Below are positions 11,259 through 57,794 of a DNA stretch of 64,000 bases, piece by piece; within the stretch, counting starts at the first letter, position 1; each line of letters begins with the position of its first letter. Where the stretch lies: positions 1,488,001 to 1,552,000 of the forward strand of contig NW_027140453.1 of the NCBI RefSeq assembly GCF_036365525.1. Direction: 5' to 3'. The notes below the pieces were generated by a model. It was given only the letters and a program-made list of their open reading frames with translations. It did no database searches and was not told where the DNA came from. The stretch comes from Heterodontus francisci. Taxonomy: Eukaryota. Both the position numbers and the translations under genes were made by a program.

Positions 11259-11431
11259 CATAAAGCCCCTCCGTCGACCCTGTTATGCAGGAACAGCAGG
11301 AGGCCCTTTCAGTCCCTCTGTCGGGACTGTTACGCAGGCACAGCAGGAGGCCCATTCAGCCCCTCTGTCGAGCCTGTTACACAGGAACAGGTGGAGGCCC
11401 ATTCATCCCCTCTGTCGAGCCTGTTCATGGT

Positions 11432-11783
11432 ACCAGTATCACTCAGATGTACTGGGACAGACAATATCTGGGGAAGGAGCCGCAGCTGATGTTTTACTCC
11501 CTAACTGCACAAAGGGTGAACTCAGAGGGGACAGTGGAGCAGTACCCTCTGCATGTACTGGTACAGACAAGAGCTGGGGAAGGAGCCGCTGTTGATGTTT
11601 TACTCCAATACTGCTAACTATGTGGATCCAGAGGGGACGGTGGACCATTTTACTGCCGAGAGACCGACTGACTCCGAGTACAACCTGGAGTCCTCCAGCC
11701 TGCGGGAGAATCACTCGGCCTTGTATTTCTGTGCCTGAAGACATCACAGTGACTCAGCGGGATGGAGCTGTTCAACAAAAACC
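11432..11783 (+). pseudogene. TRBV: Chimeric TRBV pseudogene (two fused TRBV30-like fragments) with intact 23-RSS
   Basis: TSITQMYWDRQ..EGTVE is fused to SSTLCMYWYRQ..SALYFCA*. No leader or FR1; W>stop after YFCA; RSS CACAGTG(11745)-23 bp-ACAAAAACC(11783). Confidence 0.9.
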
Positions 11784-12517
11784 CAAAAGGCTGCAGGAAA
11801 CACCTGTTTCAGATAAAATTGCTCTGTGCCCCTTATGCAGAGTGAAAGCGTTTATTACAAAAAAAAGAACTGAGTTATGATTGTAGTGACAAATTGAATT
11901 TACAGGTACTGGCAATGGTGCAAAGAACGATGAATAAGGATGTCACGAGATAGGGAGACAAAGATAGCGTCAAAGACAGCGAGACAGCAAGAGAGACATA
12001 ATGAGAGAGAGAGATCGACAGAGTGACAGCGGGAGAGAGGAGGAGAGAAAGAGAGACTGAGATTAAAAAAAACAAAGCCTGAGACACATAGGGCGATAGA
12101 GATAGAGACAAACACAGTGACAGGGAAAAAACTAAAGAGATAGCAAAACTAAGAAATTGGGAGAGAGAGAGAGAGAGTCAGAGAGAGACGGAGAGAGTGG
12201 AAGGTAAACTGAGAGGGAGAGTGCGGAAGGTAAACTGAGAGAGAGAGAGAGTCAGAGAGAGGGAGACAGCGAAAGGTAAACTGAGAGAGAGGGAGAGAGT
12301 GGAAGGTAAACTGAGAGAAAGAGAGAGAAGTAGATTGGCAAACAATTTGATTGTGATTTGTTCACCTGTGGGAATGGGCGTCTCCAACATTGTATCACTT
12401 CCTAATGCTCTTCATGTTCCTCCCAATGATTTGTAAAGAGTGGATTTGGACCCTCACAAGACTCTAAGCTCCTGATCTCACTCCTATGTCTATTAATAGA
12501 AGAAGTTGAAGTGAAAG

Positions 12518-13013
12518 ATGCATCAGTTACTGTGTCTGAGAATCCTGTTTCATTGTATGTGAGTGTGAAATGCAAAACATTATTGTTAATAACTTTCCTC
12601 TCCTCTCCCTGTCTCCCTTTCATTCCCAGAAGTTCCCTGTTTACTGATCTCCTCCTCTCTCCATCTCTCTCCCAGATGTGAACTCACAGACTATCCACCA
12701 GATTCCTGCCGCTGTCTCCAGATTTCCCGGGAAAGGAGTGGAACTGAGGTGCACTCTGGAGGGGAGCAGCAGTATCATCTCCATGTACTGGTACAGAAAA
12801 GAGCCGGGGAAGGAGCCGCTGCTGATGTTTTACTCCAGTATTGCTAACTATGTGGATCCAGAGGGGACGGTGGGCGGTTTCACTGTGGAGAGACCGACTG
12901 ACTCCCAGTTCAACCTGGAGACCTCCAGCCTGCAGGAGAATCACTCGGCCGTGTATCTCTGAGCCTGGAGTCTTCACACTGACTCAGAGAGATGGAGAAG
13001 TTCAAGAAAAACC
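12518..13013 (+). pseudogene. TRBV: TRBV pseudogene, TRBV30-like family (leader 12518-12554, V exon 12676-12974)
   Basis: Leader MHQLLCLRILFH; V exon VNSQTIHQIP..C..WYRK..VYL*AWSL with the second Cys codon TGT>TGA at 12960; RSS CACACTG-23-AGAAAAACC is degenerate. Confidence 0.93.
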
Positions 13014-15394: not shown

Positions 15395-16154
15395 ATGTTG
15401 CATGAAGTTCTCTGGCTAACCTTGATGACTGCACTCTTCCCACGTAAGTCAAAGTCAGAAACTGTGTAGAATGATGTATTGTAATGTCAGCGGTGATTCT
15501 GTCCAAAACACTGCTGTGTCAGAGTCTAACTCCAGAACACTTGAGCTCAAAGTCAAGGCTGACAAACCACATGTCAGGACTGAGGGAGTGCTGCACTGTC
15601 GCAGAGGCAGTACAGAGGGAATGCTGCACTATCGCAGAGGCTGTACTGAGAGAGTGCTGCACTGTCGCAGAGTCAGCACAGAGGGAGTGCTGCACTGTCG
15701 CAGAGGCAGTACTGAGGGAGTAACTACATTGGTTGCAAAGCCCTTTCTGAGGTCCTGAACGGCTCTTTATTAATGTAAGCCCTCTCTTTCTTGTAATGCA
15801 GCCTCTGTTCCAATCCATTATTGACTGAAATAATAATCTAATCGATGTTCCATTCCACAGGAATACTCTCCTCCTATGTGGAACAGTCGCCCTCTATCCT
15901 ATCGATTGCTGTAGGAGAGTCGACAACACTCAGATGCACGCTAAAGAATACTGGCTATCCAAGAATGTACTGGTACAGACAACAACCAGACAGGGCACTG
16001 GAAGTTCTGTTCAATTCTGCTGGAACAGGGTCTGTTACGAATTACACGTCCGAGTCATTTAAGGCAGTCAGAGCCAGCGATACACTGTTTACTTTGGCAC
16101 TGAGAGACGCCACTCCATCTCACACCGCTGTCTATTTCTGCGCTTGCAGTATCG
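15395..16154 (+). CDS. TRBV: Functional TRBV gene segment (leader 15395-15443, V exon 15861-16154)
   Basis: Leader MLHEVLWLTLMTALFP + GTAAGT donor; acceptor CCACAG; open V domain with C, WYRQ, YFCACSI. Confidence 0.93.
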
Positions 16155-16193
16155 CACAGTGTTTGAGAAAGCGGATCCGCAGCTGCAAAAACC
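16155..16193 (+). other. 23-RSS of TRBV 15395-16154
   Basis: CACAGTG + 23 bp + GCAAAAACC. Confidence 0.95.
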
Positions 16194-16211: not shown

Positions 16212-16570
16212 GTTCAGTGCTCATCTTCCCCCGGCAGGGGGCAGCAGTCGACTGAATTCGCAGTGCCCATCTTCCCCCGGCAGGGGGCAGCAGTCGACTG
16301 AATTCGCAGTGCTCATCTTCCCCCGGCAGGGAGCAGCAGTCGACTGAATTCGCAGTGCCCATCTTTCCCCGGCAGGGGGCAGCAGTAGATTGAATCTCTG
16401 TGCCCATCTTCCCCCGGCAGGGGGCAGCAGTCGACTGAATTCGCAGTGCTCATCTTCCCCCGGCAGGGAGCAGCAGAGAATGAATCTCAGTGCTCATTTG
16501 TCGCCAGCAGGTGGCAGCAGTAGATTGAATCTCAGTGCTCATTTGCCGCCAGCAGGTGGCAGCAGTAGAT
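16212..16570 (+). promoter_or_regulatory. Tandem array of 8 CTCF-like motifs (~45-46 bp period)
   Basis: Cores CCGGCAGGGGGCAGC / CCAGCAGGTGGCAGC at ~16231, 16277, 16323, 16369, 16414, 16460, 16504, 16549; most are preceded by a (G)CAGTGC element ~18 bp upstream. Confidence 0.7.
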
Positions 16571-20410: not shown

Positions 20411-20864
20411 ATGTATCAGTCATTGGCTCTGATAATCCTTTTTCACTGTGAGTGAGTGTGAAATACCAACGTTTTCTCTAATAACCTTCCTGCAATCATT
20501 CCCTCTTCCTTTCATTTCCTAGAAATCCCCTGTTTACTGACCTCTTCCTCTTCCCCACTCTCTCCCAGGTGTGAACTCGCAGACTATCCTCCAGACTCCT
20601 GCCGCTGTCTCCAGAGTTGTGGGGGAGGAAGTGGAACTGAAGTGCACTGTGGAGGGGAGCAGTACCCTTACCTTGTTCTGGTACAGACAATACCCGAGGA
20701 AGGAGCCTCAGGTTATGTTTTACTCCATGGGTGCTAATCACAAAAATCCAGAGAAGGCGGTGGACGGTTTCACCGCCGAGAGACCAACTAGCACCCAGTT
20801 CAACCTGGAGTCCTCCAGCCTGCGGGAGAATCACTCGGCCGTGTATTTCTGTGCCTGGAGTCTT
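20411..20864 (+). CDS. TRBV: Functional TRBV30-like V gene segment (leader 20411-20447, V exon 20569-20864)
   Basis: Leader MYQSLALIILFH|C + GTGAGT; V exon VNSQTILQTP..KCTVEGSS..WYRQ..MFYS..RPTSTQFNLESS..YFCAWSL is open. Confidence 0.93.
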
Positions 20865-20903
20865 CACAGTGACTCAGAGAAATGGAGCAGTTCAACAAAA
20901 ACC
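20865..20903 (+). other. Consensus 23-RSS
   Basis: CACAGTG + 23 bp + ACAAAAACC. Confidence 0.96.
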
Positions 20904-24159: not shown

Positions 24160-24215
24160 GTGAGGGATCTTTTTCCCACGGAACTGTTTGTGTTGACAAT
24201 CAACATTTATCTTTT

Positions 24216-24525
24216 CGCAGTACCCGTTTCCCACAATTAGGGGGAGCAGTTGCTGGAGGTGCAGCTGTCATTGCCCACCAACAGGAGGCAGCAGTAGATG
24301 GAGGTTCAGCTCGCATTGCCCACCAACAGTGGGCAGTAGTAGATGGAGGTTCAGCTCGCATTGCCCACCAAAAGTGGGCAGCAGTCGCTGGAGGTGCAGC
24401 TCTCTTTGTCTACCAACAGAGGGCAGCAGTGGACGGAGGTGCAGCTCTCTGCCCACCAACAGGGAGCAGCAGTGGATGGAGGTGCAGCTGTCATTGCCCA
24501 CCAACAGGGGGCAGCAGTAGATGGG
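24216..24525 (+). promoter_or_regulatory. Second tandem array of 7 CTCF-like motifs (45-bp period)
   Basis: Cores CCAACAG(G/A/T)GGGCAGC preceded by TGCAGC/TTCAGC ~18 bp upstream; linker sequence differs from the first array. Confidence 0.65.
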
Positions 24526-24679: not shown

Positions 24680-27600
24680 AAAGAGACAGTCTGTGATAGG
24701 GTGGGGAGGGGAGGGACAGATAAAGAGATAGAGGGAGACAGGGAGAGATAGAGAGACAGAGAGAGAGAAAGGCGGAGAAAGAGATACATAGAGAGAGGAA
24801 CATAGAGACAAAGACCCACAGAGACAGAGAGAGAGACAGATAGATGGAGATTGAGTAATATAGCGTTTGAAAAACAGAGACAGAGTGAGGCAGAGAGACA
24901 GAGATGGAGTGACTGCGAGAGACTGAGAGAGAGAGATAGAGACAAAGAGAGAGAGACTGAGAGAGAGAAAGGCAGAGAAAGAGACATATATAGAGAGAAA
25001 CACAGAGACAGAGACCCACAGCGACAGAGAGAGAGACAGATAGACGGAGTTCGAGTAATATAGCGTTTGAAAAAGAGAGACAGAGTGAGGCAGAGAGACA
25101 GAGATGGANNNNNNNNNNNNNNNNNNNNNNNNNNNNNNNNNNNNNNNNNNNNNNNNNNNNNNNNNNNNNNNNNNNNNNNNNNNNNNNNNNNNNNNNNNNN
25201 NNNNNNNNNNNNNNNNNNNNNNNNNNNNNNNNNNNNNNNNNNNNNNNNNNNNNNNNNNNNNNNNNNNNNNNNNNAGACAGAGAGAGAAAGTAGACAGAGA
25301 TAGAGTGAGATAGTATTAGGCACAGAAAGAGAGACAGAGTGAGGTCATGAGACAGATGGAGAGACAGAGAGAAAGAGAGAGACAGAGACAGTGAGAGGCT
25401 GATAGCCAGAGTGAGAAAAAAGAAGAACGTCAGAGACAGGCAAAGAAAGAGGAGGAAAAGGAGGGAAAGAGTAAAAGGCGGAAGGAAAACATAGAACAAG
25501 ACAAAGAGGCAGAGAGAGAGAGGGACAGAGCGAGAGTGAAAGGAAGAGAGAGAGAGAGACAAACAGAGAGACAGAGGGAGGGAGAGACAGAGAAAGACAG
25601 TAGACAGAGACCGAGTGAAATAGTGTTAGGCACAGAAAGAGAGACAGATGAGGCAGTGAGACAGATGGAGAGATAGAGACAAAGAGAGAAACAGAGAGAG
25701 AGGCAGACAGAGACAGTGAGAGAGTGAGAGGCAGAGAGAAGTTAGAATGTCAGAGACAGGCAAAGATAGAGAGAGAGAAAGGAGAGAAAGTGTAAAGGAA
25801 GGAAGGGAAACCAAGAACAAGACAAAGAGACAGAGAAAGACAGGGGCGAAGAGAGAGAAAAGAAAGAGAGAGAGGGGGCAGACAGAGAGACAGAGAGAGA
25901 CAGAGAGACAGAAAGAGAGGTAGAGAGAGAGAGATAGAGAGAGATACAGATAGACAGAGAGAGACAGTAGACAGAGATACAGTGAGATTGTGTCAGGCAC
26001 AGAAAGAGAAACAGTTGAGGTAGTGCGACAGATGGAGAGACAGAGAGAAAGAAAGAAACAGAGAGAGAGGCAGACAGAGACAGTGAGAGAGTGAGAGGCA
26101 GAGAGAAGTTAGAATGTCAGAGACAGGCAAAGATAGAGAGAGAGAAAGGAGAGAAAGAATAAAGGAAGGAAGGGAAACCGAGAACATGACAAAGAGACAG
26201 AGAGAGACAGGGGCGAAGAGAGAGAAAAGAAAGAGAGAGAGGGGGCAGACAGAGAGACAGAGGGAGAGAGAGACAGAGAGAGAGGTAGAGAGAGAGAGAG
26301 AGAGAGAGATGCAGATAGACAGAGCGAGACAGTAGACAGAGATAGAGTGAGATTGTGTCAGGCACAGAAAGAGAAACAGTTGAGGTAGTGCGACAGATGG
26401 AGAGACAGAGAGAAAGAAAGAAACAGAGAGCGAGGCAGACAGAGACAGTGAGAGAGTGAGAGGCAGAGAGGAGAAGGAAGAACGTCAGAGACAGGCAGAG
26501 ATAGAGAGAGAGAAAGGGAGAGAAAGAGTAAAGGGAAGGAGGAATACAACAAGACAGAGAGTCAGAAAGAGAGATGGGGCAGAGAGAGAGAGAGTGGCAA
26601 AGAGTGAGAGGCAGACAGAGAGCGAGCGAGAGAGAGAGACGGAGAGAAAGAGATAGAGAGAGGCAGAGAGAGAGTGANNNNNNNNNNNNNNNNNNNNNNN
26701 NNNNNNNNNNNNNNNNNNNNNNNNNNNNNNNNNNNNNNNNNNNNNNNNNNNNNNNNNNNNNNNNNNNNNNNNNNNNNNNNNNNNNNNNNNNNNNNNNNNN
26801 NNNNNNAGGCGGAGAGAGGGGCAGACAGAGACAGTGAGAGTCTAAGATGTAGAGAGGAGAAAAAAGAACGTCAGAGACAGGCAAAGATAGAGAGAGAGAA
26901 AGGGAGAGAAAGAGTAAAGGGAGGAAGGATACAGAGAACAAGACAAAGAGGCAGAGAGAGTCAGAGAGAGAGAGACAGGGAGAGACAGAGAGAGAGACCG
27001 AGCGAGACAGGAGACAGAGATCGAGTGAAACAGCGTGAGGCCGAAAAAGAGAGACGGAGTGAGGTAGTGAGACAGATGGAGAGACAGAGCGAAAGAGAGA
27101 GACAGAGAGAGAGGCAGACAGAGACAGTGAGAGAGTGAGAGGCAGAGAGAAGAAAGAAGAACGTCAGAGACAGGCAAAGATAGAGAGAGAGAGAGAGGGA
27201 GAGAAAGAGTAAAGGTAAACAGAGAACAAGACAAAGAAGCAGAGGGAGAGACAGGGACAGAGGGAGAGAGAGAGACAGGCAAACAGAGAGACAGAGGGAG
27301 AGACAGACAGACAGCCAGACAGAGACAGACAGACAGACAGACAGTCAGAGACAGATAGACAGAGATATAGTGTGATAGTTTTAGACACAGAAAGAGAGAC
27401 AGAGTGAAATAGCGAGACAGAGATGGAGAGACTGGGAGAGACAGAAAGAGACAAAGAGAGGCAGAGAACGAGAGACAGAGAGATGTGATGCTGAGAGAGA
27501 AAAGGAAGAACATCAGAGACAGGCAAAGATAGAGAGAGAGAAAGGGAGAAAATGAATAAATGGAAGAAGCAAAACAGAGATCAAGACAAAGAGATTGAGA

Positions 27601-27880
27601 GACACAGAGAGAGAGGGAGACNNNNNNNNNNNNNNNNNNNNNNNNNNNNNNNNNNNNNNNNNNNNNNNNNNNNNNNNNNNNNNNNNNNNNNNNNNNNNNN
27701 NNNNNNNNNNNNNNNNNNNNNNNNNNNNNNNNNNNNNNNNNNNNNNNNNNNNNNNNNNNNNNNNNNNNNNNNNNNNNNNNNNNNNNNNNNNNNNNNNNNC
27801 AGAGGGACGGGGAGAGATAGAGAGAGAGAGAAAGACAGACAGAGACAGGAATGGAGTCACAGAGAGAGAAAGACTTGTCA
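24680..27880. repeat. GA-rich compound microsatellite with local duplications and N runs
   Basis: Direct observation; ORFs are low-complexity artefacts. Confidence 0.9.
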
Positions 27881-28061
27881 AGAGACTTATCCAGGGAGAA
27901 GAAGATTAAAATATGGAGGAGAGAAAGTGTTTATGGAAACAGGAGACCTCCAATGGGATAATAACTCTGAAAAGGGAAGGACACGTGATTAAAAGGGAAA
28001 TTTGAAGTGAGAGATAAAGGGACAGAAAAATGAGAGAGAGAGAGAGGGGGGGGGGGAGAAG

Positions 28062-28142
28062 TTTTATTGAACTGCTTTGAAACATCGTGGGAGGTCAGTA
28101 TAGCACCGTGTTACATTCCTGTGCTCACCCCGTGCAAGAACT
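28062..28142 (+). other. TRBD: Putative TRBD segment GGAGGTCAGTATAG (28090-28103) with 5' 12-RSS and 3' 23-RSS
   Basis: TTTTATTGA-12 bp-CATCGTG | D | CACCGTG-23 bp-GCAAGAACT; ~270 bp upstream of a J; 12/23 layout is that of TRBD. Confidence 0.7.
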
Positions 28143-28370
28143 CCACCGTGGCTTGCCCTTCTCACAGGCTACCCGACTGCCTGCCCCAGTGCCCAGGATA
28201 TCCCCACCCCTGCAGCAAGGCGCCTCCACTGTCAGGACAGGCAGGAGCAGACTGAATCCTGAGTTGACCATTTCATGGGGCACATGCCCCCTGAAGAGAT
28301 AGCAAACTGCCCAGGCAAGGCGAGAGGCTTGCTGGGGTAGGAGTTTTCAATGGTGGGTTCACTCTCTGTG

Positions 28371-28419
28371 GTGAACGATCCAGCTACCTTCGGAGGTAGG
28401 ACCCGACTCACCGTTCTGG
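28371..28419 (+). CDS. TRBJ: TRBJ of the inverted cassette (non-canonical FGGR; ORF/pseudo)
   Basis: VNDPATFGGRTRLTVL + GTAAGT donor; heptamer CTCTGTG at 28364-28370 with a weak nonamer. Confidence 0.85.
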
Positions 28420-30069
28420 GTAAGTAATGCTCGAGTCCCGGTGCTGGAGGTTGAGTGGGGGGCAAAAGGAGCTGGTACACACAATAATATCTCTGAGTTT
28501 ACCGTGTCTGACCAGATGGAATCTTATTATTGTGTTGGAAGAGGCCATTTGATCATTGTGCCTCTTTGGTGCAGAGAGGGGGAAAGAAACAGAAAGGGAA
28601 AGCAACAGAAACAGGGAAATAAGCAGAGAAAAATGTGAGATAGAAAAAATGGCGAGAAAAAATGGAAGCAGAGAGAGAAAGATGCAGAAAGAGAGGGAAA
28701 GAAACAGAGAGAGAGGGAAAGAAACACCGAGCGAGTGATGATAGAGATAGATGGAAAGAAACAGAGAGAAAGAGAGAGGGAAGAGAGAGAGAGAAAGAAA
28801 CGGAGAGAAAAAATAAACAGAAACAGAGAGAGAGACAGAGAGATAGACTGCAGGCAGTAGAGAGGCAGACAGAAAGCCAGTGAGAGAAACACAGAGAGAG
28901 AATCACAAATTGAGAGAGAAACACTCCGAGAGGGAATGAGTGGCAGAGAGAGAGATAGTTTCAGAGAGAGAGTGATTTAGAGAGAGGGGGAGAGATTCAG
29001 AGAGAGAGGCAGAGAGAGAGAGAGAGAGAGAGAGTGGGAGCGATTCAGAGGGAGGGGGTGTGTTTCAGAGAGAGAGAGAGATTTAGACAGAGAGAGAGAG
29101 AGCAATTCAGAGAGAGAGAGGCAGAGAGAGAGAGAGAGTGGGAGCGATTCAGAGTGGGGGGGGGGGGTGTTTCAGAGAGAGAGAGATTTAGAGAGAGAGA
29201 GAACAATTCAGAGAGAGAGGGAGAGATTCAGGGAGTGAGGGAGAGAACCCAAGAGAGAGAGGGGGAGAGATTCAGAGAGAGAGAGTGGGAGCGATTCAGA
29301 GAGAGAGGGAGAGATTCAGGGAGAGAGGGAGAGAATCAGAGAGGGAGAGATTTACTGAGATTGAGAGAGGAAAGGAGAGAGAGATTCAGGGAGAGGGAGA
29401 GAGAGAGAGAGATTCGGGCAGAGAGAGCAGTACAGTTCTGGACCATTGACCATGGTGCCATGGTTGGCTCCTTTCTACAGCTGTCTGATTGATCCCAGTT
29501 CCTTCCCACCCTATCGCTATAGACCTGCAATTCCTTCCCTTCAGCTGTTGACCCAATTCTCTTTGTAATACTATGAGTGAATCCCACCGCCCTTTCAGGC
29601 AATGCATTCCACATCACAACAGCTCACTGCTTTGTGTCACGGGAAACAGTTTCGCCTCATTTATTCTGTCAAAACCATGACCGATTGCAAACGTCTCTGC
29701 TAAGTCTCCCCTGAACTTTCTCTTCAGGAGAACAATCCCAGCTCCTCCAGTCTCTCCACATTAACTGAAGTCTCTCATCCTTGGTGTCATCTTGTGTGAA
29801 CTCACTTTATTTCTCTTTCGTTAAAGCTTTCTGCCACTAAGTTCCTCATCCTCTTTATTTCTTATCCTTATCTCTCTCTCTACTTGCCCTCTTCCTTTTC
29901 CCTGTTGTTTGTCTCTGCTTGCCCCCTCTCTACTTGTCACCTTGTTTCTGTTCTATCATCTACCTCTCCCTCGCTTTCCTACATGCTCCGGTTCTAAGTC
30001 CGCTTTTCTCTCAGTCCTGGAGGTAGTGTTGCCCTGGATGATAGACTTGCAGCTCTGGACTGGGACTCG

Positions 30070-33290: not shown

Positions 33291-34229
33291 TGTTCTGTTA
33301 TCACATCATTTATAATAGTCTCTAGCATTTTCCCCACTACTGATGTAAGGCTAACTGGTCTGTAATTCTCTGTTTTTCCCTCCCTCCTTTCTTTTATAGT
33401 CTACAACAAACTGTTGATGTTGTGGTGAAGGAGAATGAACGCTGGGGTAAACACACTCCCCCCCACCCTCGCCACCACCCCCTTCCATCCCCGTCGTTCC
33501 TAACACTCATGTTTCACTCTCCCACAGAGGCAGACCAAGAGGTTAAGCATCCCACCATGACCATTTTTGAGCCATCGGAAGAAGAAATCAGGGCCCGTAA
33601 GAAAGCCACCATTGTCTGCCTGGCCAGTGGCTTCTTCCCGGACTACGTGAAGTTCTCCTGGACATGGGGGCAACGAGGAGATCGAGACGAAGGATGTGCT
33701 GACTGACAGGCGGGTAAAGGATGATGCAGGCCGCGACAGCGTGGACCAGTCGGTTGAAGATTCCCATGGCCGAATGGGCCCGCAAGCAGTATTCCTGCAA
33801 AGTGACCCATTACAGTAAAGACGGCGCGGAGATTTCTCAAGATGCCAAGATCAGCAGGAAGGCAGGTGAGTGTCTGCAATGCCTGGAATCACCTCTGCTC
33901 CACCCGAGCCCAAAGCAAGGAAGCTATACTGAACCTTTATCAATGCAATGTTACAGCCTTGAGGGAGGATGTGAAGGTGTTAGAGAGGGTGCACAAAATA
34001 TTCACGACAAAGGTTCCAGGGATGAAGGAATTCAGTTAGGTGGATAGCTTGGGAAAGTCTACATCATAGCTGAGACTTAAGAACACTGGAAGAGGCCGAG
34101 GCTATTCAGCCGTTGAAGCTTGTTCCACCATTCTGTTACATAAAGATTAATCTCTACAATTACTCTATTTGACGCCTCGGCTCAGTAACCATCAATAACC
34201 TTATGTTCACCCAAATGGTTCACCACTCA

Positions 34230-36820: not shown

Positions 36821-37329
36821 AATCTCTGTGCAGAGAATTTTCCCCCGATTTATGTTCTTGCTGTGATATGAAAACTGCGATTTATGCACAACTAATTGAA
36901 GTTTTTTCCTCTTTTTGATTTCTTCCAGGCCTCTGAGAAGGGAATGGTGAGAACATTCAATATTTTATCAGTTTGCTATGATCTGTCTTTGTCTCTCTCT
37001 CTCTCACACTCTCGCTCTCTCACGCACATACACACACACTTACGGAATGTACAGAATGATTAAGTTGGATTTTAGGGCCAGTGACTATGGTCTTTCTTGT
37101 TTGTCTTTCAGTGGAGCGGATACAGAGGCAACAGATTGTGGCAAGAGCTACTTACACTTTACTCATCTCCAAGAGCTTCCTGTATATGGCAAAGATCACC
37201 ATCGTGCTGCTCAAGGGGAAGGTATGAGAATTACTAGGACATTTTGCTGACGTGTAAAACGGACCCCATTCTCTATTCTGTAAACTTCAATCCTCTCCAG
37301 GTTTTCAGGCATCAGTGATGCACATTCCC

Positions 37330-38890: not shown

Positions 38891-41014
38891 GAAGATTGAG
38901 GCACATAGAGAGAGGAAGAGAGAGAGAGAGAGGAGCGTTTAAGGGAGAGACAGACAGACACAGAGACAGAGAGAGAGGGAGACAGGAAGAGACAGAGGGA
39001 GAACCTAAGAGAGAGAAATAGACAGAGAGAACATACGGGAGAGACAGTGAGAGTGGGAGGGACAGGAAGGGAGAGAGAGAGAGAGAGGAGAGGACAAGGG
39101 AGAGACAGAGTGACACAGAGACACAGACAGAGAGAGAAACACATAGACAAAAAGAGAGAAAGAGAGAGACAGAGAGAGAAAGAGAGAGAGAGAGAGAAGC
39201 GTTTAAGGGAGACAGAGAGAGAGCCCTACTCCCCTACTCTTTCCTCATCACCTTGCAAAATTTACCCTTTCATGTCTTAATCCAATTGTCCGCTTTTTCA
39301 GGCACTGATTTCCAGATGACAACAACGCTCTGAGTTTTAAAAAGAACTCATCCTTCCCTCTGGATCTTGTTAAATGCCATGAAATGTGTTTCCACTGACT
39401 CGAAATCCTTCCCAGGGCATTGTAGAAGAAATATTCCATGACTGACTCAATCTTTTTCCTTCCTTTTTTTCCCCTTCCAGATATCGGGAAAGTTGACGAA
39501 AAATTTCGATTAACTAAGCCGGGGCCAAAAACTCTGCAACACGGCACTCGTCACAACATATCCTGCAGAAATATGGGAAAGGAGGAGGAGGCTATTGGGT
39601 CATATCCCTATCATTGATATGTTGTCATTTTCTATTGGTTAGTAACAGTTTGGCAACTGGCAAAACCCATTAGATCTTTCAGAGGAATTGGATTACAACA
39701 TAATTAAAATTTATGTCTCAATTTCTATTCAATTCATTTAACCACTTGTCAGCTGGTTAGCTGAACTGGGTACGCTACTTTAACTAGTTGAGATGTCTCC
39801 TGTCCAGCTTTGACCCGTTTGCACACTGAGCTTTATTTCTTTAAGTTGAGCTTCTTCATGATGCACCCTTCTCTCTCTTGTGACATCAAGCAGGCTAATA
39901 AAAAGATCTGTGGAAATGATACGCTGTGGTTTTAACTCTGCTTTTCGCACCTTTACACAACATTTCACCAGGCATTGCAGTTCGCCAGCTCGCAGGAGAA
40001 AATACAAAACAGATACTGAGCTGAAAACAACATGAGAAACACACAGCAGGAACAGAGTCGAAAGGGGCTCCTGAGGATGGGAGGAAATAACACGGCGGGC
40101 ACATCAGCATTTTGCAGGAGTTTAGGATGGAGGGTTAATAGGGAGTGTTAATAAGTGATGCTGGGTGGGTGCCCAGCACAGCTTTTTGTATGACCGACTG
40201 GCTTGCCCAGTCATTTCAGAGTCAGCCACATTGTTGCAGGAATGGAGTCACCTTTTAGGCCAGGCCGGTTAAAGATGACAGATTTCCTTCTCTCAGTGAG
40301 AGATGGGTTTTTCAGGAAATCCAGTAGTTTTATGCTGACTATGACTGAGACCGGCTTTTTATCATTTTTTAAGTTCGTTCATAGGATGTGGGCGTCGCTG
40401 GCCAGGCAAGCATTTATTGCCCATCTCGAATTGCCCTTGAGAAGGTGGTGGTGAGCTGCCTTCTTGAACCACTGCAGTCCACGTGGGGTAGTTACATCCA
40501 CAGTGCTGTTAGGAAGGGAGTTCCAGGATTTTGACCCTGCGACAGTGAAGGAACGGCGATATAGTTCCAAGTCAGGATGGTGTGTGACTTGGAGGGGAGC
40601 TTGCAGGTGGTGGTGTTCCGATGCATCTGCTGCCCTTGTCATTCTAGTTGGTAGAGGTCGCGAGTTTGGAAGGTGCTGTCTGAGGAGTCTTTGTGCATTG
40701 CTACAGTGCATCTTCTAGATGGTACACACTGCTGCCACTGTGTGTCGGTGGTGGAGGGAGTGAATGTTTATCTAACTAAGTGAACTTACATTATCCACCT
40801 TGCTGGGATTCGAATTCACGTCACCAAGTTATTAGCCCAGGCCTTTAGATTACTAGCCCAGTAACGTAACACTTTGCTACCTTACACTTGAACCTTCTTT
40901 TGAGCCTCAGCCCTAGGAGTGGAAAATGCAAATGTGGGCGTGTTTCTACGTGTGATTCACTCACTGTTAAATCCACACACCAGCCTGTTTTTCTTTCTTA
41001 AGCTGTTTAAACGT

Positions 41015-41062: not shown

Positions 41063-42746
41063 CTCTGTGTCTCTCTGTATAATTCGATTCTGCTGCTGTG
41101 TTGTTCTGACAAAGTCTTTCCACAAAAACACATGGAAAGAAAGCAGTACAGTGGAATTTGCAGGTAGTTAGGGCGACGAATTGAATTAACAGGGGAGATA
41201 GGAGGAGTTGCACTAGCTGGGTTGATCTTGCAGAGAGCTGGAATTGATTCGATGGGTCAAATGGCCTCCTTCTGTACTGTAACCCATCTCTGATTCGTTG
41301 ATAGATTCCCTGTAGTCGGAGAATCTGAAAATATATTTGATCAGTCAATCAAGTGTGAAGGAAATGCAACACCCAACATGTTTACATTGCTGACTCTTTA
41401 TTCCCTCAGGTATAGAAGATTAAACGGTGATCTGACTGAGGTGTTTAAAATGATTGAATGTGTTGATAGGCTAGATAGAGATAAACTGCTTTCTCTTGTT
41501 GGGGGCGGGGCACGGGGGCAGAACAAGGTGGTCTAAACCCAAACATCGAGCCAGGCTATTCAGGAGTGATGTCAGGAAGCATTTCTTCACACAAAAGGGC
41601 GGGGGAATCTGTTTCCTGTGTGCAGATTAGTGTTTGTAAGGTCAATACAATTTTGCACGAACGGTGTGGTAGTGATTCCTTTGGAAGAACAACACTTTAT
41701 CTTTAAGACAAGCAGTTAAACTATAAATGCATGTGCCAGAGTAGCATTTACCCCCACATCACGGTATTGTTTTTCATTACACCTCTGTTCATTNNNNNNN
41801 NNNNNNNNNNNNNNNNNNNNNNNNNNNNNNNNNNNNNNNNNNNNNNNNNNNNNNNNNNNNNNNNNNNNNNNNNNNNNNNNNNNNNNNNNNNNNNNNNNNN
41901 NNNNNNNNNNNNNNNNNNNNNNNNNNNNNNNNNNNNNNNNNNNNNNNNNNNNNNNNNNNATCTGTCTGTCTTTGCCTATCTAATTATCTGTCTGTCGACC
42001 GATTTCACTCTCTATATAGAATCTCTATCCATCAATATTTATCTACAAATCTATCTGTTGTTCCCTCCGTCCATCTCTTTCTCAATGACATCTATAGAAC
42101 TCCCAATTCATTTCTTTCACACTCTCTATCTATTTATTTATCTATCTGCTGAGCCATCGCTCTATCGATCTATCTGTCTATCTCTCTATCAATCTGTCTA
42201 TCTATTTCTCTACCTATTGCTCTCTCCATCCATCACTTCCTTTCTTTATATCCAACTATCTCCCCATCCATTTATTCCAACAGTTCATCTATCTATTTGT
42301 TGATAACTTTATTTAACTAACTATATAACCATCACTCTGTCTAGCTATTGTTCTCCCTATCCATCTATTTCTTTATATCCATCTATCTCTTCATCTCCAT
42401 CTCTCTCCCTGTATCTCCCTCTCTATCTATTGATGCCTCTATCTATTGATCTCTCTATCCATACATATCTCTTATATGTCTATATGATCTGATATGATAC
42501 GCCTATATATGTCTATAGAGATCGATCATTCTATCCAACTCTCTATCTCTCTATTAGTATCTATCTATCTACCACTTTATCAATTGATGTCTCCATACAA
42601 CTCTCTTTATATCTATCAATAGCTTTCTATATTTATATCTATCTATCAATCCCTTTCTACCTTTCAGTCAATCCTTGTCTATCTATCCATCTATCTATCT
42701 ATTTTTCTGTCCACCAGATTGACATTGGACTCTCATTGACAGGACC

Positions 42747-43625: not shown

Positions 43626-46600
43626 TGTTATTTTCAAGCTCCAATCTTGTTTTGAGTTAATATTTTCTGGAGGAAATGACACTGCAACCGAATTTTAAAG
43701 TCAAAGCACATTATCGCTCCCATTCACTCAACAGACAATCGCTTTAACAAGCAAAATGTTTACCCCCATACAGTATGTAAGATTTCAGTGAACGTTTGGC
43801 CGACTCTGCTCTGTCTCATTGATATTTTCCAGTGTTACTGCTGACATTTTTGCATTTAGGGTTTTTTTTTTATATGGAGAATTGGAATGGGGAGTGAGCA
43901 AGTACTGGGAAAAAAGGGGAAGGGATGTGATTCGACACCAGATTGTGTGTGTGAGAGAAAGAGCTAGGGAGAGCTGGGGAGAGAGACAAAGAGAGAGAGA
44001 GGGTGAGGGGAAGAGGGGGCAAGGGAGCGAGAGAGAGAGATAAACAAACAGAGGGGGCAAGATATGGAGAGAGAGAAAGACAGAGGGAAAGAGAGGGGAA
44101 GGGATGGAGAGAGAGAAAGACAGAGGGAAAGAGAAGGGAAGCGATGGAGAGAGAGAAAGACAGAGGGAAAGAGAGAGGAAAGGATGGAGAGAGGCAAATA
44201 GACAGACAGGATAGAATATGGAGAGAAAGACAGGCAGTGAGAGAGAGTGAAAGAGTTACAGAGAGACAAAAAGGCAGACAATGAAAAATACTGAGGAGTC
44301 AGCAACTTGGAAAACGGTAAGCGAGGTGATAGAGAGAGAGGGGGAGGGGAGAGAGAGAGAGAAACATGGTGAGTGATGGGGAATTAAGCAGGCAGCGCAC
44401 AGAAAGAGGAAGGAATGAGATAGAAAGGAAAAGAGGTAGGGGAATGGCTGTATAAGAGATACAGAGAGAAAGAAGGGATAAATGAATGATGCAGGGAGAG
44501 AAAAATAGAAAGAGAGAGGGAGAATGATAGTGAGGAATAGAAAAGGAGAGAAAGAAGTAGGGCATAGAGAAAAGGCAGGGGACGTATCGAGACAGAGAAC
44601 TGGTGAGATAGAGAGACCAGAAGCTAGAATAGTGGGTAGATAGAGCTGACAAAAAAGAGTTTCCGATTACCAAAAATGCAACGCTTGTAGCCTTCTAAAG
44701 CTGGTTTAAAGATTGACTCGATATCTACGTACATCAATCAGCCTGATAATAAAGGTATCTTTCAATGTCTGTAGCCAGTGAGAAAGTGTTCATATTCCTG
44801 AGATGCAGGTCAGTGTGCAGTGTTAGACATCAGGAAAGAATGAACAGGCTGGGGATCTTTTCTGTAGAAAGGAGAAAGCTGAGGGGTGACCTGATAGACG
44901 TCTTTAGGCTTACGAAGGGGTTTGATAGGGGAAATGGGGCCATAAATATAAGACACATCACTATTGAATCCAATCAGGAGAGACTTCTTTACCCAGAGAG
45001 TGGTGGGAATGTGGAACTCGCTACCACTTTAAGAAGAATAGCATCGATCCCTTTAAGGGGAAGTTGGGAAAGCACTTGAAAGAGAAAGGAATGGAAGGAG
45101 ATGTTGCTGGGGTGAGATGAAGAGTGGGTGGGAGGAGGCTCATGTGGAGCTGAAACACTGGCATGGACCAGACGGGCTGAATGGCCTGTTTCTGTGCTGA
45201 AATCTCTATGGAGCTGGAGTGCAGTTCAGACAAGGTCTCACTGAATGGCAGAACAGATGCGAGGATCAAAATGGCCCCCCTCCTGTTCCTAGGTTTCTAT
45301 GTATACAGCCTGGGTCTGGTGCAGTTCAACACAGAGGTGACTGGCTCGATCCCTCCCCGACTGTATCGCTCAGTAACCCCATAGGGCAGAAGAGAGACAG
45401 CAGCCACCTGGCATTACCCATCTCCCACGTGGACAATCCCTTGGCGACTGTGAGCGCCATTGCCCGCTCAGAGCAAACCATTTACAAAGGAAGGGTGCAG
45501 CGCCCTGGGTTCCAAAGCCGGGGATGAAATTGCCCAAATCCAGAACAGTCTGGAAAAGCACTCATCGGTGAAATTGTTTGGAAGGACAGCATTGTGGTAG
45601 GAATGGGCTGGGCTCATAATCCCAAGATATGAGTTCAAATCCCATCATGGTAGCTGGGGAATTTCAATTCAGCTAATTAGCTCAAAATGTGCAATAAATA
45701 GCTAACATCAGCAATGGCGACCTTGAAACTGCGAGAGATTTGTTTCAAACTCCACCTGGTTAACTCATGTTCTTTAGGGACGGAAATCTGCAGCCGTTAC
45801 CCGGCCTGGCCTACATGCAACTCCAGACCCACAGCAATGTGGTTGACTCATAACCGCTCTCTGAAATGGCCTAGAAAGACATTCATTTGTGTTCAGGAAA
45901 GTAGTTCATCGCCACCTTCTCAGTGGCTGTCAGGGATGGGTTACACATAGCAACAGGGAAACAGGAGACTATTTAGCCCACTCGAAGCTGCCACGTAGAG
46001 CGAGGAAGCGATTCTGCCCTCTCACGCCTGTTGCATAGAATTGGGTGGAGGAGGTCATTCAAACCAGGAGAGCCTGTTGCATTGCAACAGGAGGAGTCCA
46101 ATTCAGCCCCTCGAGCCTATTACATAGGCATAGTGTGAGGAGTCCATTAAACCCCGGCACATGTTCCGCCATTCAATTAGATCATGGAAGATCTGCACAC
46201 CAACCCTATTTCCCCATCTTTGCTCAATATCCCTTGATCCCGTTACCCAATAAAATTCATCTAATGTCTACCTGCATATTTTAATGTTGTTTGGAAATGT
46301 TGTGCCAAGCGCGTGGGGTAAAACTGAAATAATAGTGGAGAGAAACGGTTTTCTTTGTCGAAATATTCTATTTATTTCTTAACCAGTGAACAAGAAAAGA
46401 AAAAAAATGTAGAAGATCACAAGCGAGCTGTCGATACTGGATCCACTGAGAACCCCACGACAAATAATGGACAATTATGAGCGCATTTTCCATCTGCAAT
46501 CGATGAGGTGTCTGATACAAATAGTAATAACATTTCTGCATTAACAGAAAAGGGAAAAAAGACATTAATAGTTGCACCAAACAGAACTTGAAGTTACAAT

Positions 46601-47150
46601 TTGTTTACTACTGCTTAATATTATACACAGCTTTACGAGAATTGCACGGAATGAGGGACTTAAGTTTCATGGAGAGATCAGCAAAGCTGGAATTGATCGC
46701 CTTGGCATTAACAACTGGCTTTTTCAAAGAGCTAGCACTTGCACGATGGGCCAAGTGGCCTCCTTTCGTCCTGTAAGGTTGTCTGTTTCTTTATAACGTT
46801 TCAAACAACACAGAATAATAATTAATAAACAGACAAAATAAACTGGAAAAAAAGTTTGCACGTTTCTCAAAGCTTCACCTCCTGAGACAACAGGAATTTA
46901 ATACATTGACGAGAATATGAAAGGACTTATTCTAGTGGAAAAGACAGACTGGGGCTTAAAATTTCCTCTGTTCGTTTCCCGCAGTGGTGATGGGTATTTA
47001 GGGTTGTCCGCCAAAGTTACGCGGGTACAGCGGGAGTGGTTTAGACGAAATTCACCCCCGAGATATTCACAATAATCGTATTTTCTCTCCCCTTGCTCCC
47101 TCGTGTGTTCTGCTGCTTATCCATCTTTTGAGTTCATTAATTTGCGACGA

Positions 47151-50100
47151 TCAGTCAAACCTTTTGCTGTAAGACGTCTGGTATATGATAAAAAAAAAGA
47201 GGGCGTTATTACCGTCATGGAATTATGGACTGATACAGAACAGAAGGAGGCCATTCGTCCCGCGTGCCTATACTGGCATTTTGAAAGAGCTGTCCAATTA
47301 GTCCCATTTCACAGTTCTTTCCCCTATAGCCCTGAGACTATTCCTTCCCCCACTACCTCCACCCCCTCAAACAAGTATTCATCCAATTCCCTCTTGAAAG
47401 TTGCTACTAAATCAGCTTCCACCGCCCTTTCAGCCAGTGCATTCTCAACCACAACAACTCGCTGGCTCAAAATATATTTCTCACCTGCCCCTCTGCTCCC
47501 TTGGCTAATCACCTTACAGCTGTGTCCTTGGTTGGGCAATCCTGCTGCCTCTTTGAAGCTGTTACCCCATTCGTTGTCCTATCCAAACCATTCATCATTG
47601 TGCACACCTCTATTAAATCTCTCCTTAACCTTCCCTGATCCAAGGAGAACAATCCCAACTTCCGTATTCTCCTCACATCACTGAGGTCCCTCAACACTGT
47701 TACCGTTCAAGTAAATCGCCCCTTCACCCTCTCCAATGACTCGACATCACTGTCCTGACCAGATCATCATGTGCATGAATAATCGAGACGAACCATGCAC
47801 ATGCTCTTTCCTGCTCATGCATTCCTAAGCTTGCATATAAAGTCTTGTAAAATCACAATAAGTTCAATTATTTTCCAAGGGAAATTCCAGAACATTGACA
47901 ATTGTGTTCAACTGGATTAAATTGGTTGGTTAGTGTTGTGGGCGCAGGAATGAATGGAAAGTGAATTGGTGTATTCCATCTGCGTGCAATAGGAATGCAA
48001 AACTAGGGCTCGTGAATATCGGATAGTCACTCGTAATTTCAGTCTGGAATTCAGGAGAAACTTCTTTACCCAGTTTCACCATGACAATACCTATGTTAAG
48101 AACTTCAGTAAGTTTAATCTTACCTTAGTTTTCCAAGCAATTGTTGAGATGAAAATTGTATAAAAGATGCTTTTGCAGATGAGGATCAGGTATGTCAGTT
48201 TTGCTGTTGCCATGCTTTGGATTTTCGCCTCTGTAAAATAAATGTAACAGAAAATGATGCAATCTCTGTTCTCACAAGGCAAGAAATGCTACTGCGTGAA
48301 AATGTAATGTGTGTCAGTAAAGGAGCCCAATGTAAGGGTCGAGCTGCGAAAGCAGAACTGATCTCCCTTTGACGCAAGGAGCCCTGGGGTATTCCTAACT
48401 ACAAATGGAGTTCAGCAATATGGCCGATCTGAATTGGGGCCGCTGTAACTTCTGTGTCAGCTATGGCTCACGTATGTATCAGCTCCAGCTGAGTGGGTAA
48501 CGCTCTCCTGTCTGAGTCGTACGATTGTGGGTTCATGCCCCAGTCCAAAGACATGAACCCCATAATCCAGACTGACTCTCCCAGTGCCAGTAGACAGCGT
48601 GTGTGCTGCACTGCAACTTTGGAGGAACCTTCTTTGAGATGATGTGTTAAACTAATTTAACCTCTGGGAAGTGGAACTGTCCCTCTTATCTCCACGCCAG
48701 ATTCACACTATCAACTCCCAAGGAATTGTAAGTTTTAAGACAGGTGTACACAGCTCCCTCCCCTCCCATCCCCAGGCGTCCCCTCTCCCTCATCACAGGG
48801 CAACATATTTCCCTGAGGTCGTGAACCCAAGAGGACCGTGAGGTTATATCATTCGACTAGGCTGGTCTCGAAATTCCAACGGCCTTTCCCTCCCAGAGGA
48901 GTTTTCTCATAAACACGTTGTGCATGATAGTATGTATAACTGTAAAACTACAGCTTGGAAATGTTGAAATGAGTATATACATGAAATGTCTGACACAGTA
49001 ATAATTCCAGAATTATTGGTGAATATTTTTTGAGTCATGGAGTCATTACAGCACAGAAAGAGGTCATTCGGCCCATCGAGTCCATGCAGGATCTCTACAG
49101 AGCAATCCAATCAGTCCAGCTCTCCCCTTCCATCTCCATTGCCCTGCAAGTTAATTACCCTCAACAGTCCGTCCAGTTTCCTTATGAAATCATTCATTAT
49201 CTCCATTTCCACCACCCTCGTAGACAGTGACTTCCAGGTCATTACCACTCGCTGCATAAAACACTTCTGCCTCACATCCCCCCCCCCAGTGCATCTTTTT
49301 CCCAAAGCCTGAAAACTGTGACCCCCCCCCCCCCAGTCCTTATGCCAGCAACTCATGGGGACAACTTTTCTTTGTCTACCTATTGTAAACCTGTCATAAT
49401 CTTGTACAACTCTGTCAAATAGCCCCTCAATCTCCTTTTCTCCAAGGAGAACAACCCAGGTTCTCCAATGTAACTTTGTAGCTAAAATTCCTCATCTCTG
49501 GAACCATTGTGGTAAATCTCCTCTGCACCCTCTCAAGGACCCTCACCTCCTTTACAAAGTGTGGAGACCAGATACAGATAGAAGCAGATAGATATTCACC
49601 TTTACTTATACCGCACATTTCTGGGAAAAGAAAGAGAAATCAATAAACATTCAGCATCAGAATATTTTATGAAATCACTGTGTAAATGTAGATTATCACA
49701 ATTGAGTCCCGCACTGTAGTCTAATATATTGAGAGTCATTTTAATCGAGTGTTTAACCATATCTTCCCCTTTACACTACAATATTGTTCTATTTCATGAA
49801 TTATTTAATTATTTATTGACTTACTGACACATCTACTTGCTTATTCGTACTTTCATAAGAGCACAGGTGCTATATAAATGCAACTTTCTGATTTCTTTGA
49901 ATCTGAAATAAAATGGTATTGGTCTCACTAGTGTGCCTACCTGCTTTGACAGCTAATGTTGAACTGCTTGTTGCAGGCACTGATTCGTTAGTGTAGAGAT
50001 CTACTCTGCACTCAACGTTCTTGGACCGAGCCCAATCTAGGGCGTCGAATCTCAGCCGGCTGCTGATGCTGTAAGATGTATTTTCTTTTGATAGGATGGC

Positions 50101-50291
50101 ATTGAGATCAGTATGAATGTTCGTGTCATTGGCATCTTTCTCCTTGCCATCGACAAGCCAGTGGATCTTGATGTTGTCGGGGTAGAAGTCGCTTACGAGG
50201 CAGACCACAGTGGCTTTTTTCTTTTCTCTAATCTCTTCGGGAGAGGGCTCAAAGACAGTAACTTTGGCAGGCCTAATCGTATCGTTTTCGC
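47151..50291 (-). CDS. TRBC: T-cell receptor beta constant region, functional: EX1 49941-50291, EX2 49600-49620, EX3 48124-48230, EX4 47151-47177
   Basis: EX1 GENDTIRPAKVTVFEPSPEEIREKKKATVVCLVSDFYPD..W..YSISSRLR..VECRV; EX2 EMCGISK (hinge Cys); EX3 EAKIQSMATAKLTYLILICKSIFYTIFISTIAWKTK (TM Lys); EX4 TSYSKRFD*. All splice sites are canonical and in phase. Confidence 0.96.
48455..48655 (+). mobile_element. Degenerate DeuSINE copy in a TRBC intron
   Basis: tRNA-like head (GGGTTCATGCCC) followed by ..CCAGTG..GTGCTGCACTG..GATGTGTTAAAC. Confidence 0.55.
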
Positions 50292-50689
50292 CTGCAGGAA
50301 AATTAAATGGAGAGAATATGGATGAGTATGAAACCCGTCTTGAGAATTTTAAACCACCAAACAATATCAACCTTTCAATTCTAGCCAGAGCAGTTAATTT
50401 TGTGCCAACTCCAGAATAAACCTCTCTGTTTCCCGAACACCGATCAGTCATAAAACGTAGAATCAGTTTGCAACCTCGACCTGCTTTTGTACATTTTAAC
50501 CCAAAGTGGCAGAAACTGATCATCTGAACCTCTTCGTCATTGAGTGAAGTACAAGTCTGTCTCATTATGAAAGAGGTTCTCCTGTCTATCTGAAAAGTGT
50601 TATCCTGAACTCTGGGCCAGCCTGTTCTCAATAACCAGGCTATCACTCACCTTGTCCCATTATCTAGAGCCCTTTCCTATCAGGGAGGT

Positions 50690-51270
50690 TATGGGGAACA
50701 TTTCTAAAGCTCTGGTTAGGCCACAACTAGAGTTTTGCAGCCAGTTCTGATCACCACATTTGAGGAAGGTAGTGAGTGTCCTTGAGAGGGTGCAGAGGAT
50801 ATTTAACAGAATGGTTCCAGGGATGAAGGATTTTAGCTACAAGGTTAGGTTGGAGAAGCTGGGATTGTTCTGCTTGGAGCAAAGGAGATTGAGGGGAGAT
50901 TTGATGGCAGCGTACAAGATTATGACGGATTTAGATAAGGTAGACAAAGAAAAGCTTCACCCATTAGTTGTTGGTACAAGGACCAGGAGAGACAGATTTC
51001 TGGTGCTGTGCAACAGATGCAGGGGGATGTGAGGAGGGACACTTTTATGCCACGTGTGGTAATGACCTGGAACTCGCTGCCCACAAGGGTGGTGGAAGCG
51101 GAGACAATGAATGATTTCAGAAGGAAATTGGATGGACACTTGAGGCAAATTAACTTGCAGTGCCACAGGGATAGAGCGGGGTAGTGGGACTGATTGGATT
51201 GCCAGACAGAGAGCTGGCATGGACTCGATGGGCGGAATGGCCCCCCTGTGTGCTGCATTATGATTCTAAT
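50690..51270 (+). mobile_element. CR1 LINE 3' fragment (further CR1 tails near 47.2-47.7, 49.0-49.6, 51.3-52.1, 56.1-56.6, 60.7-61.3 kb)
   Basis: LERVQRIFNRMVPG..EQRRLRGDL. Confidence 0.85.
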
Positions 51271-52648
51271 CCTACTCTTGTCTCTTCCCCCAAATGTAAT
51301 ATTTAATAATTAGTGCTACCGTAAACTCACACATGAAAGGAGGGGACCATTCGGCCATTTGTGTGAATTCCAGCTCTTTGGTAGAACTAGCCAATTAATC
51401 CTACTCCCCACCCTGTTCTTCTCACATAACCCAGTAAACTATGTACCTTCAAACTCTCTCTATTTCCCTTTTGAAAGCTACTTTTGAAGTGAAGCTACTA
51501 TTGAATCTGCTTTCAGCACCATGTCAGGCATTACATTCCAAATCACAACAACTCGCTGTTCAAACAAAATATTTCCTCATCCCCCTTTTTTTTTCCAACG
51601 ACCTTAAATCTGTGTCCTTCTGGTTACCGAACCTCCTACCACTGGAAAAAAAGGTTTCTCCCTTTTAACTCTATCGAAAGCCTTCCTGAGTTTCAGCACC
51701 TCAATTCAAATTTTCCCTGTACCTTCTCTGCTCCAAGGAGAACAATCCCAGCTTCTACAATCTCTTCACGATATCTGAAGTGCCTCAACTCTGGAACCAT
51801 TCCAGTCAATCTACTCTGCATTCTCTCTAGGGACTTATCGTGTTTTCCAAAGGGTGGCACCAGAGTGGAACACAATGCTGCTACTGAGGCCTAAACAGTA
51901 TTTTATAAATGTTCATGATAACAGCTTTGCTTTTTCCCTCTGTGCCTCTGTTTACAGAGCCAAAAGGATTCAGTGTGCCTTTTGATAGCCTTTTGAACCT
52001 GCCCTGCCACCTTCATAGATTTATGAACATACATCCCCCTGGTTTCTCTGTTCCTGCACCCAATTTAAAATTGTACCATTTGAGAAACAATGTATTGGCT
52101 CAAAGAAAATAAGGGGAGTGTGTCCGAGCCAATATTTATCCCTCATTCAACACTTCACATCCACCATTCCGGTTATCTGGTCATTTAGTGCAATGATGCT
52201 TGTGGGATCTTGCTGTGCGCATTTTGGCTGAAATCTTTCCCTACATTACAACAGTGACTACACTGCACAGTCAGTTCTTTAACTCTAAAGCTCTATGAGC
52301 GTAATATTGCGAAAGAAATACCTGAACAGGTTTGGGTTTACAGACAAGACTCTGTGAGAATGCCTTGAATATTAAAATGATAAAATCATTAACATAATGA
52401 CTGATGCCTAATTTTGTTATATTTCTGTTCTGAATATTGAACCAATGGAGATTTCAGGAGACGTCTCTTCACCCGGAGAATAGTGAGAATGTGGAATTCG
52501 CTTTTTTTTTTGACTCGGAGGTAAGAGTGTTACCACTCTGTAACTTCACTGAAATGCTTAAACCCAAGCAGCATTTTGAGAACTGGTCTCTTTCTCAACC
52601 AGTTGAGCTGCAGTTGACAGATGCAGTTTGACAATGGTGCGTCTTTAC

Positions 52649-52700
52649 CTAGAACTAGTTAGTTTGGTACCTTTGCTGCAATACAAGAAAATGCCTTGCG
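52649..52700 (-). pseudogene. TRBJ: TRBJ pseudogene (most C-proximal)
   Basis: LYCSKGTKLT then a +1 insertion before VL; GTAAAG donor; degenerate RSS. Confidence 0.6.
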
Positions 52701-53641: not shown

Positions 53642-53692
53642 CCGAAACGCTTAGCTTCGTGCCCCCTCCAGAATACTGTTCATATCCTGAAG
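53642..53692 (-). CDS. TRBJ: TRBJ SGYEQYSGGGTKLSVS (F>S, ORF)
   Basis: GTGAGT donor; RSS read on + strand as CACCATG-12-ACTAAAACT. Confidence 0.85.
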
Positions 53693-57760: not shown

Positions 57761-57794
57761 AGTTCGACAAACAAAGCCTTTAACATTTACATAC

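Follow-up and report, generated by a model that had tools for sequence, protein, structure and literature searches.

A probable relic D segment of an inverted V-D-J-C cassette at the T-cell receptor beta locus of the horn shark

In amniotes inverted TRBV genes, human TRBV30 among them, carry 23-RSSs and are found beyond the 3′ side of C in the reverse orientation (PMC10464911, PMC11754216), and the single inverted V behind mammalian TRBC is described as rearranging by inversion (PMC10464911). This V has long stood without an explanation; whether it confers an advantage at all is not clear according to a paper of 2025, and the model outlined there invokes the translocation and inversion of a single V family, the outline containing no cassette (PMC11754216). 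Salmonids and pike carry a pair of oppositely oriented V-D-J-C units on a single chromosome, placed head-to-head with the V genes in the middle, the D segments being identical and the C genes highly similar (PMC10464911). Squamates possess a second beta-like V-D-J-C unit, TRE (TCR epsilon), which is regarded as a duplicate peculiar to squamates and located elsewhere, with V genes sister to the inverted TRBV clade (PMC11754216); our comparison with it is by published description. The canonical TRBD, GGGACAGGGGGC, is a short segment that starts with G and sits between a 12-RSS and a 23-RSS (PMC11754216, PMC6170632, PMC10464911). In the titles and opening lines of abstracts of the open-access papers listed, a shark TRB D segment, a second shark TRBC or an inverted cassette is nowhere described.

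The window analysed here is a stretch of 64,000 nucleotides from Heterodontus francisci (contig NW_027140453.1, positions 1,488,001 to 1,552,000) and is the 3′ end of a shark T-cell receptor beta locus. The minus strand holds the main J cluster and a functional C-beta (C1), with the main D presumed to lie beyond position 64000. The plus strand carries two pseudogene V genes, two open V genes, a V relic, a D segment (D2), a J segment (J2) and a second constant region (C2). Contigs from one further sample, termed organism A, were used for comparison; it is either another individual or a near relative and differs from the window by about 1%. The features are as follows.

11430–13013, plus strand, two CAWS-family pseudogene V genes, their RSSs starting at 11745 and 12975
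15395–16193, plus strand, V 15861, open: leader 15395–15443, exon 15861–16154 ending CACSI, 23-RSS from 16155
20411–20903, plus strand, V 20569, open and TRBV30-like: leader 20411–20447, exon 20569–20864 ending CAWSL, 23-RSS from 20865
28060–28089, plus strand, 5′ (V-facing) RSS of D2: nonamer 28060–28068, 14-nt spacer 28069–28082, heptamer 28083–28089 (CACGATG in the minus-strand reading)
28090–28103, plus strand, D2 segment, GGAGGTCAGTATAG, without listed change where organism A contigs span it
28104–28142, plus strand, 3′ 23-RSS of D2: CACCGTG, 23-nt spacer, GCAAGAACT
28343–28370, plus strand, 12-RSS of J2: CACAGAG, 12-nt spacer, ATTGAAAAC (minus-strand reading)
28371–28419, plus strand, J2, VNDPATFGGRTRLTVL, with a GT donor and FGGR for FGXG
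33528–33865, plus strand, Ig-domain exon of C2, matching the C1-set, with two +1 frameshifts near 33668–33671 and 33744–33747
36929–36946, plus strand, hinge exon of C2, G-L-stop-E-G-N, with TGA at 36934–36936 where catsharks have Cys (GLCEGN)
37112–37221, plus strand, transmembrane exon of C2, open frame
39481–39513, plus strand, cytoplasmic exon of C2, ISGKLTKNFD* (catshark SGKLAKHFD)
46355–50291, minus strand, functional C-beta (C1), exons 49941–50291, 49600–49620, 48124–48230 and 47177 to about 46355
50380–63014, minus strand, main J cluster, 14 J-like segments (50380–62990) with the 12-RSS to the right, 12 of the 14 with a GT donor

In common with the amniote inverted TRBV genes the plus-strand V genes of the shark lie downstream of C with 23-RSSs, but here they are followed by a D, a J and a four-exon C that belong to the same unit. 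The presence of two units in opposite orientation recalls the salmonids and pike; the shark units are tail-to-tail, however, D2 is unlike the canonical segment and the two C genes share about 34% identity. This arrangement depends on the scaffolding over the N gap at 41794–41959, one of several between C2 and C1, and three further gaps (25110–27799) lie between the V genes and D2.

Within the main cluster the Ig domain of C1 (49941–50291) is 100% identical to four H. francisci records and 99% identical to two more among 14 matches, and RNA-like runs of organism A show the C1 exons spliced together at CT..AC ends. Near-identical C1 models occur on H. francisci scaffolds of four different sizes, suggesting that the J-C cluster is multi-copy in horn sharks or that haplotypes are unmerged. 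Three J relics lie on the minus strand at 50380–50440, 52650–52700 and 56010–56060; one is without a GT donor, one reads CSKG with a shifted end and one, recognised by eye, has FGSG followed by a stop. The J at 58551 (minus strand) has the heptamer AGCAGTG (58572–58578) in the window, while in organism A the insertion of CA after 58573 gives CACAGTG, a polymorphic loss of this J signal. At 62725–62781 (minus strand) another J, J 62755, has FGER for FGXG, a fair signal and a GT donor.

Judged from its sequence and setting, D2 is a real D segment rather than a pair of cryptic RSSs. The 14-nt core, GGAGGTCAGTATAG, is flanked by GTG and CAC as the initial annotation described, and the frames it gave, GGQY / EVSI / RSV*, are those of the sequence, two of the three being open. 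The start of the unit needs correction from 28062 to 28060, because the 5′ nonamer fits at a 14-nt spacer. Heptamers starting with CAC are present on both sides and the 23-RSS is on the J side. D2 is located 267 nt upstream of J2, on the same strand as J2 and C2 and opposite the main J-C cluster, so that it precedes a 12-RSS J and a C-beta on its own strand, as a TRBD should. Like the canonical TRBD it is short, starts with G, precedes J and C with a 12-RSS on one side and a 23-RSS on the other, and encodes Gly in one frame. It differs in its core, in the stop in one frame and in the 14-nt best-fit 5′ spacer. The usual GGGACA is missing from the core, which is not GGGACAGGGGGC-like. The combination GTG plus GGGACA occurs nowhere in the 64-kb window, which holds no canonical D.

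The 5′ signal consists of CACGATG, TTTCAAAGCAGT, TC and AATAAAACT. On a heptamer/nonamer matrix built from 11 main-cluster J signals, with the 1934 CAC sites of the window as background, it scores 5.7 at a 12-nt spacer and 17.1 at 14 nt. The lower value is reached by 5.2% of the CAC sites and is comparable with the 5.1 of main J 62175; leave-out scores of the training signals are at least 12.9 in nine of 11, the others being 5.1 and −4.2. The first 12 spacer bases are identical at 11 of 12 positions to the spacer of main J 55454, or at 12 of 12 with the organism A variant at 28080, and we therefore regard this as a true signal of the TRB locus. The two additional spacer bases are common to organism A, since a DNA contig is gapless over 28066–28110. 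The exact spacers previously claimed for both signals are thus not found on the 5′ side, where the shark nonamers are matched only with 14 nt. On the 3′ side the heptamer CACCGTG and the 23-nt spacer are as annotated; the weakness is in the nonamer, which has G at position 5. This signal has four mismatches to the consensus, a level reached by nine of the 1934 CAC sites, and in one organism A contig 28137 A>G makes a second change in the nonamer, at position 4. Divergent nonamers are reported generally to reduce recombination (PMC9723617), although a consensus nonamer is described as not strictly needed when CAC is intact (PMC10536018). The V-side 12-nt spacer with a good nonamer that is expected of a TRBD is absent from D2, and because both the core sequence and this spacer depart from expectation we file D2 as likely a relic D. 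Between the window and organism A the unit shows one or two changes over 81 nt and the following pieces of 130–147 nt show two to six per contig, a divergence too shallow to show selection.

J2 is also present in the H. francisci protein XP_067881640.1. Its signal scores 11.0 at 12 nt, within the top 1.2% of CAC sites, and 16.5 at 13 nt. The FGXR form of its motif is not unique as it is shared by main J 62755. C2 has the parts of a receptor constant region, namely a C1-set domain whose exon start is set by the J2–C2 splice in run X8 of organism A, a hinge, a transmembrane exon with the pattern Y-x-L-L-x-x-K-S-x-x-Y and a cytoplasmic exon. It does not have an open frame with the hinge Cys, owing to the two frameshifts and the change of Cys to stop, and the assertion that the C belonging to this D is dead was accordingly right. 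The second frameshift is shared by XP_067881640.1 and the first is not, so that the decay is real and continuing. That C2 appears dead only by sequencing error is ruled out by three lesions, one of them shared with an independent record.

How old is this constant region? A search with the first 47 residues of C2 gave four proteins from four candidates, one from H. francisci and three Scyliorhinus models. The three models have an open J-C2-transmembrane-tail and keep the hinge Cys, and one starts with a CAWSL V like V 20569. A Rhincodon typus model taken from a representative library is open but without the hinge exon. With X placed at the breaks, the C2 of the window shares 64% identity with Scyliorhinus torazame, 62% with S. 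canicula and 54% with R. typus, compared to 34% with its own C1, 28–34% with eight shark C1 sequences and 28–36% with bony-vertebrate C-beta rows. The C2 models of S. canicula, S. torazame and R. typus include, in that order, XP_038657067.1, XP_072356531.1 and g47757. The C2 clade has support of 95/88 in one tree and 81/99 in another, the rows of the C-region tree being hand-picked from 150 representatives with multi-domain Ig heavy chains omitted. C1, C2, the bony-vertebrate C-beta and one gamma-like row branch in an open fork, and a single shark C1 plus C2 clade is not rejected (AU p = 0.08). The identification of C2 as beta rests on the D, the linkage and database names. On these sequence comparisons C2 is a lineage separate from C1, with open frames in the Scyliorhinus and Rhincodon models, and because its clade spans horn shark, catsharks and whale shark it should be at least as old as the split between horn shark, catshark and carpet shark. 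An older origin is possible. The initial annotation did not recognise D2, J2 and C2 as parts of one cassette with a C that is open in other shark lineages.

The two open V genes have intact leaders and splice sites and their RSSs are close to consensus, with no mismatch in V 20569 and one in V 15861. Of the pseudogenes, that at 11430–11744 has a middle part partly duplicated inside, yet a perfect 23-RSS at 11745. Directly behind the RSS of V 15861 is a tandem array of 7.7 copies of a 46-nt unit (16215–16566) with a CAG(G/C)GGGCAG core; a similar array, 6.4 copies of 45 nt, is at 24239–24524. The site of V 20569, past the 3′ side of C and on the other strand, and its 23-RSS are those of an inverted TRBV, subject to the N gaps. 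It ends in CAWS and, leaving multi-domain engineered constructs aside, its best PDB matches are four TCR beta chains at 63–68 bits. Three of the four are MEL5 or its high-affinity variants; the best other single V scores 52.8. MEL5 is reported to use TRBV30 (PMC5887915). When the C-terminal half of V 20569 is used alone the MEL5/TRBV30 chains are absent from the 27 matches. In a tree without mammalian TRBV30, the shark CAW-family V genes together with salamander CAW V genes fall outside other V families, with a support of only 80/83. Members of the V 20569 family are found also in bamboo sharks and a manta ray. V 15861 groups with V domains of Pristiophorus and Mustelus (100/99), and both of its database orthologues are joined to the main J and C1, with junctions NDTKLGG and KDTGLR; the junction residues of an H. 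francisci cDNA are GH. None of three junction-bearing proteins contains a D2 frame and all three fit a GGACAC-type D, soft evidence in that it is at the protein level and from three records without V orientation. The 23-RSSs of V 15861 and V 20569 share the orientation of the main-cluster signals, and for that reason these V genes could join the main D-J by inversion.

The RNA data of organism A consist of assembled contigs, the runs X5 to X8 being judged RNA-like by guess with the backing of splice joints. In X8 one contig crosses the unrearranged J2 signal (28260–28414) and two have a loose end after 28419 that is the start of the C2 exon, so unrearranged J2 is transcribed and its RNA is spliced to the dead C2. 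For the contigs of X8, X5, X1 and X3 over 27830–28575, neither a joint of D2 to J2 is listed nor a loose end at D2 or before J2. This is not evidence of absence because contigs drop rare variants, and in addition X8 gives no cover over about 28030–28104. On 46340–64000 four RNA-like runs contain spliced C1, with no J junction among the 24 loose-end rows shown of 24 plus 1497; the rows shown are repeats and therefore say nothing on D use. The contig depths, about 50,000 on C1 and 10–30 on J2 in X8, are not taken as expression levels. The DNA of organism A contains the D2–J2 region in no fewer than two or three versions. The D2 heptamers, like the core, are unchanged in the contigs covering them and the Arg codon of FGGR is unchanged in every contig over J2. 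In one contig the nonamer is ATTGAAACC, which is nearer to consensus. The upstream flank of D2 (27833–28020) also exists in a version about 10% diverged (17 changes over 167 nt), seen in DNA runs and in X8 and read as an older paralogue.

Could D2 still serve the functional J-C? The initial annotation proposed an inversion of 25–35 kb to that effect, and the geometry is largely as it stated. The 3′ signal of D2 and the 12-RSSs of the main J segments all point to the right of their coding ends, so that joining D2 to a main J would be an inversion; the span is 22.3–34.9 kb, or 25.6–34.9 kb when only the 12 J motifs that have a GT donor are counted out of the 14. A plus-strand V might then join by deletion to give functional beta chains. 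The 12/23 rule permits this, CAC is intact on both sides of an unchanged core with two open frames, and germline RNA occurs nearby. Since RAG is described as tolerating poor nonamers where CAC is intact (PMC10536018) and the region is transcribed, we retain a small probability for this route, but on balance find it quite unlikely. The V-to-D step would require a V-facing signal that is the weakest of the cassette and has either a 14-nt spacer or a near-background nonamer, the nonamer of the 23-RSS is off at position 5 and in one copy at position 4 also, none of the three junction-bearing proteins has a D2 frame, and the V genes have a simpler path, with known precedent, that bypasses D2 altogether. 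It is rather unlikely, too, that D2 rearranges at a low rate and mostly to J2, giving a non-productive D2-J2-C2, or that a paralogous copy keeps a usable cassette. The score of the J2 signal, the nonamer of organism A nearer to consensus, the two or three versions in that sample and the C1 models on four H. francisci scaffolds would suit such a view; the Arg of FGGR is nonetheless constant in the organism A contigs over J2, and the sole Heterodontus C2 record found is frameshifted as well.

We consider it very unlikely that the layout is in part an artefact of assembly, with the cassette mis-oriented or misplaced over the N gaps and hence no inversion geometry. The gaps from V to D and from C2 to C1 leave room for this, but no gap separates J2 from C2 and a splice connects them, and C1 and C2 models are found on contigs of equal size in two species, H. 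francisci (1,569,485) and S. canicula (225,974,235), which bears on their linkage and not on their relative orientation. That D2 is a chance pair of cryptic RSSs is extremely improbable. The core is without GGGACA, and the window does contain one other unit at the mismatch level of D2 (24163–24176, minus strand), which has no J beside it and is taken as chance. Against this, 60 block shuffles lead one to expect 0.033 GTG-(6–25 nt)-CAC units as good as D2 per 64 kb, D2 is placed just before a J, and its spacer matches that of a real J signal at 11–12 of 12 positions.

The reading we prefer, and think probably correct, is that D2 is a D left over from an ancient V-D-J-C cassette in inverted orientation, the V genes of which are likely to use the main D-J by inversion. 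The cassette, whose tail faces that of the main horn shark TRB cluster, would once have made a second beta chain. When C2 broke in Heterodontus, selection on the D signals would have relaxed, and the two extra 5′ spacer bases and the change in the 3′ nonamer may have followed. The open plus-strand V genes would join the main GGGACA-type D-J by inversion in the manner of TRBV30, which we take to be the 3′ inverted V of mammals. Within the one cassette the strong signals of V 20569 and V 15861 contrast with the weakened signals of D2, and the near-perfect V signals have likely been kept because these genes can reach the main D-J by inversion. Counted against a relic are the intact D2 core, both heptamers and CAC triplets, and the transcription of the J2 region, where chromatin may on that account be open. 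The contribution of D2 itself to the functional repertoire is likely small or nil. Were it nevertheless used by the inversion route, a D would be captured across strands by an inversion of 25–35 kb, and we know of no case of a D captured in this way at a TRB locus.

A wider proposal, doubtful and put forward tentatively, is that the TRB locus of the ancestral jawed vertebrate ended in a complete V-D-J-C cassette in inverted orientation, which had a D other than GGGACA and a C-beta lineage of its own. A second kind of beta chain would still be produced from this cassette in catsharks and the whale shark, the horn shark would be losing it, and TRBV30, perhaps with squamate TCR epsilon, would be a remnant. 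A competing view, in which an inverted V after C is common to the beta and delta loci and so predates both (PMC12227049), would weaken the idea of a cassette relic. TRBV30-like V genes at the head of a full inverted D-J-C cassette provide a concrete and testable origin for the inverted V, and such a V may outlive its cassette as it can reach the main D-J by inversion. Finally, the locus points to a second and deeply diverged beta constant region in several sharks, one that would be missed by repertoire studies primed on the main C.
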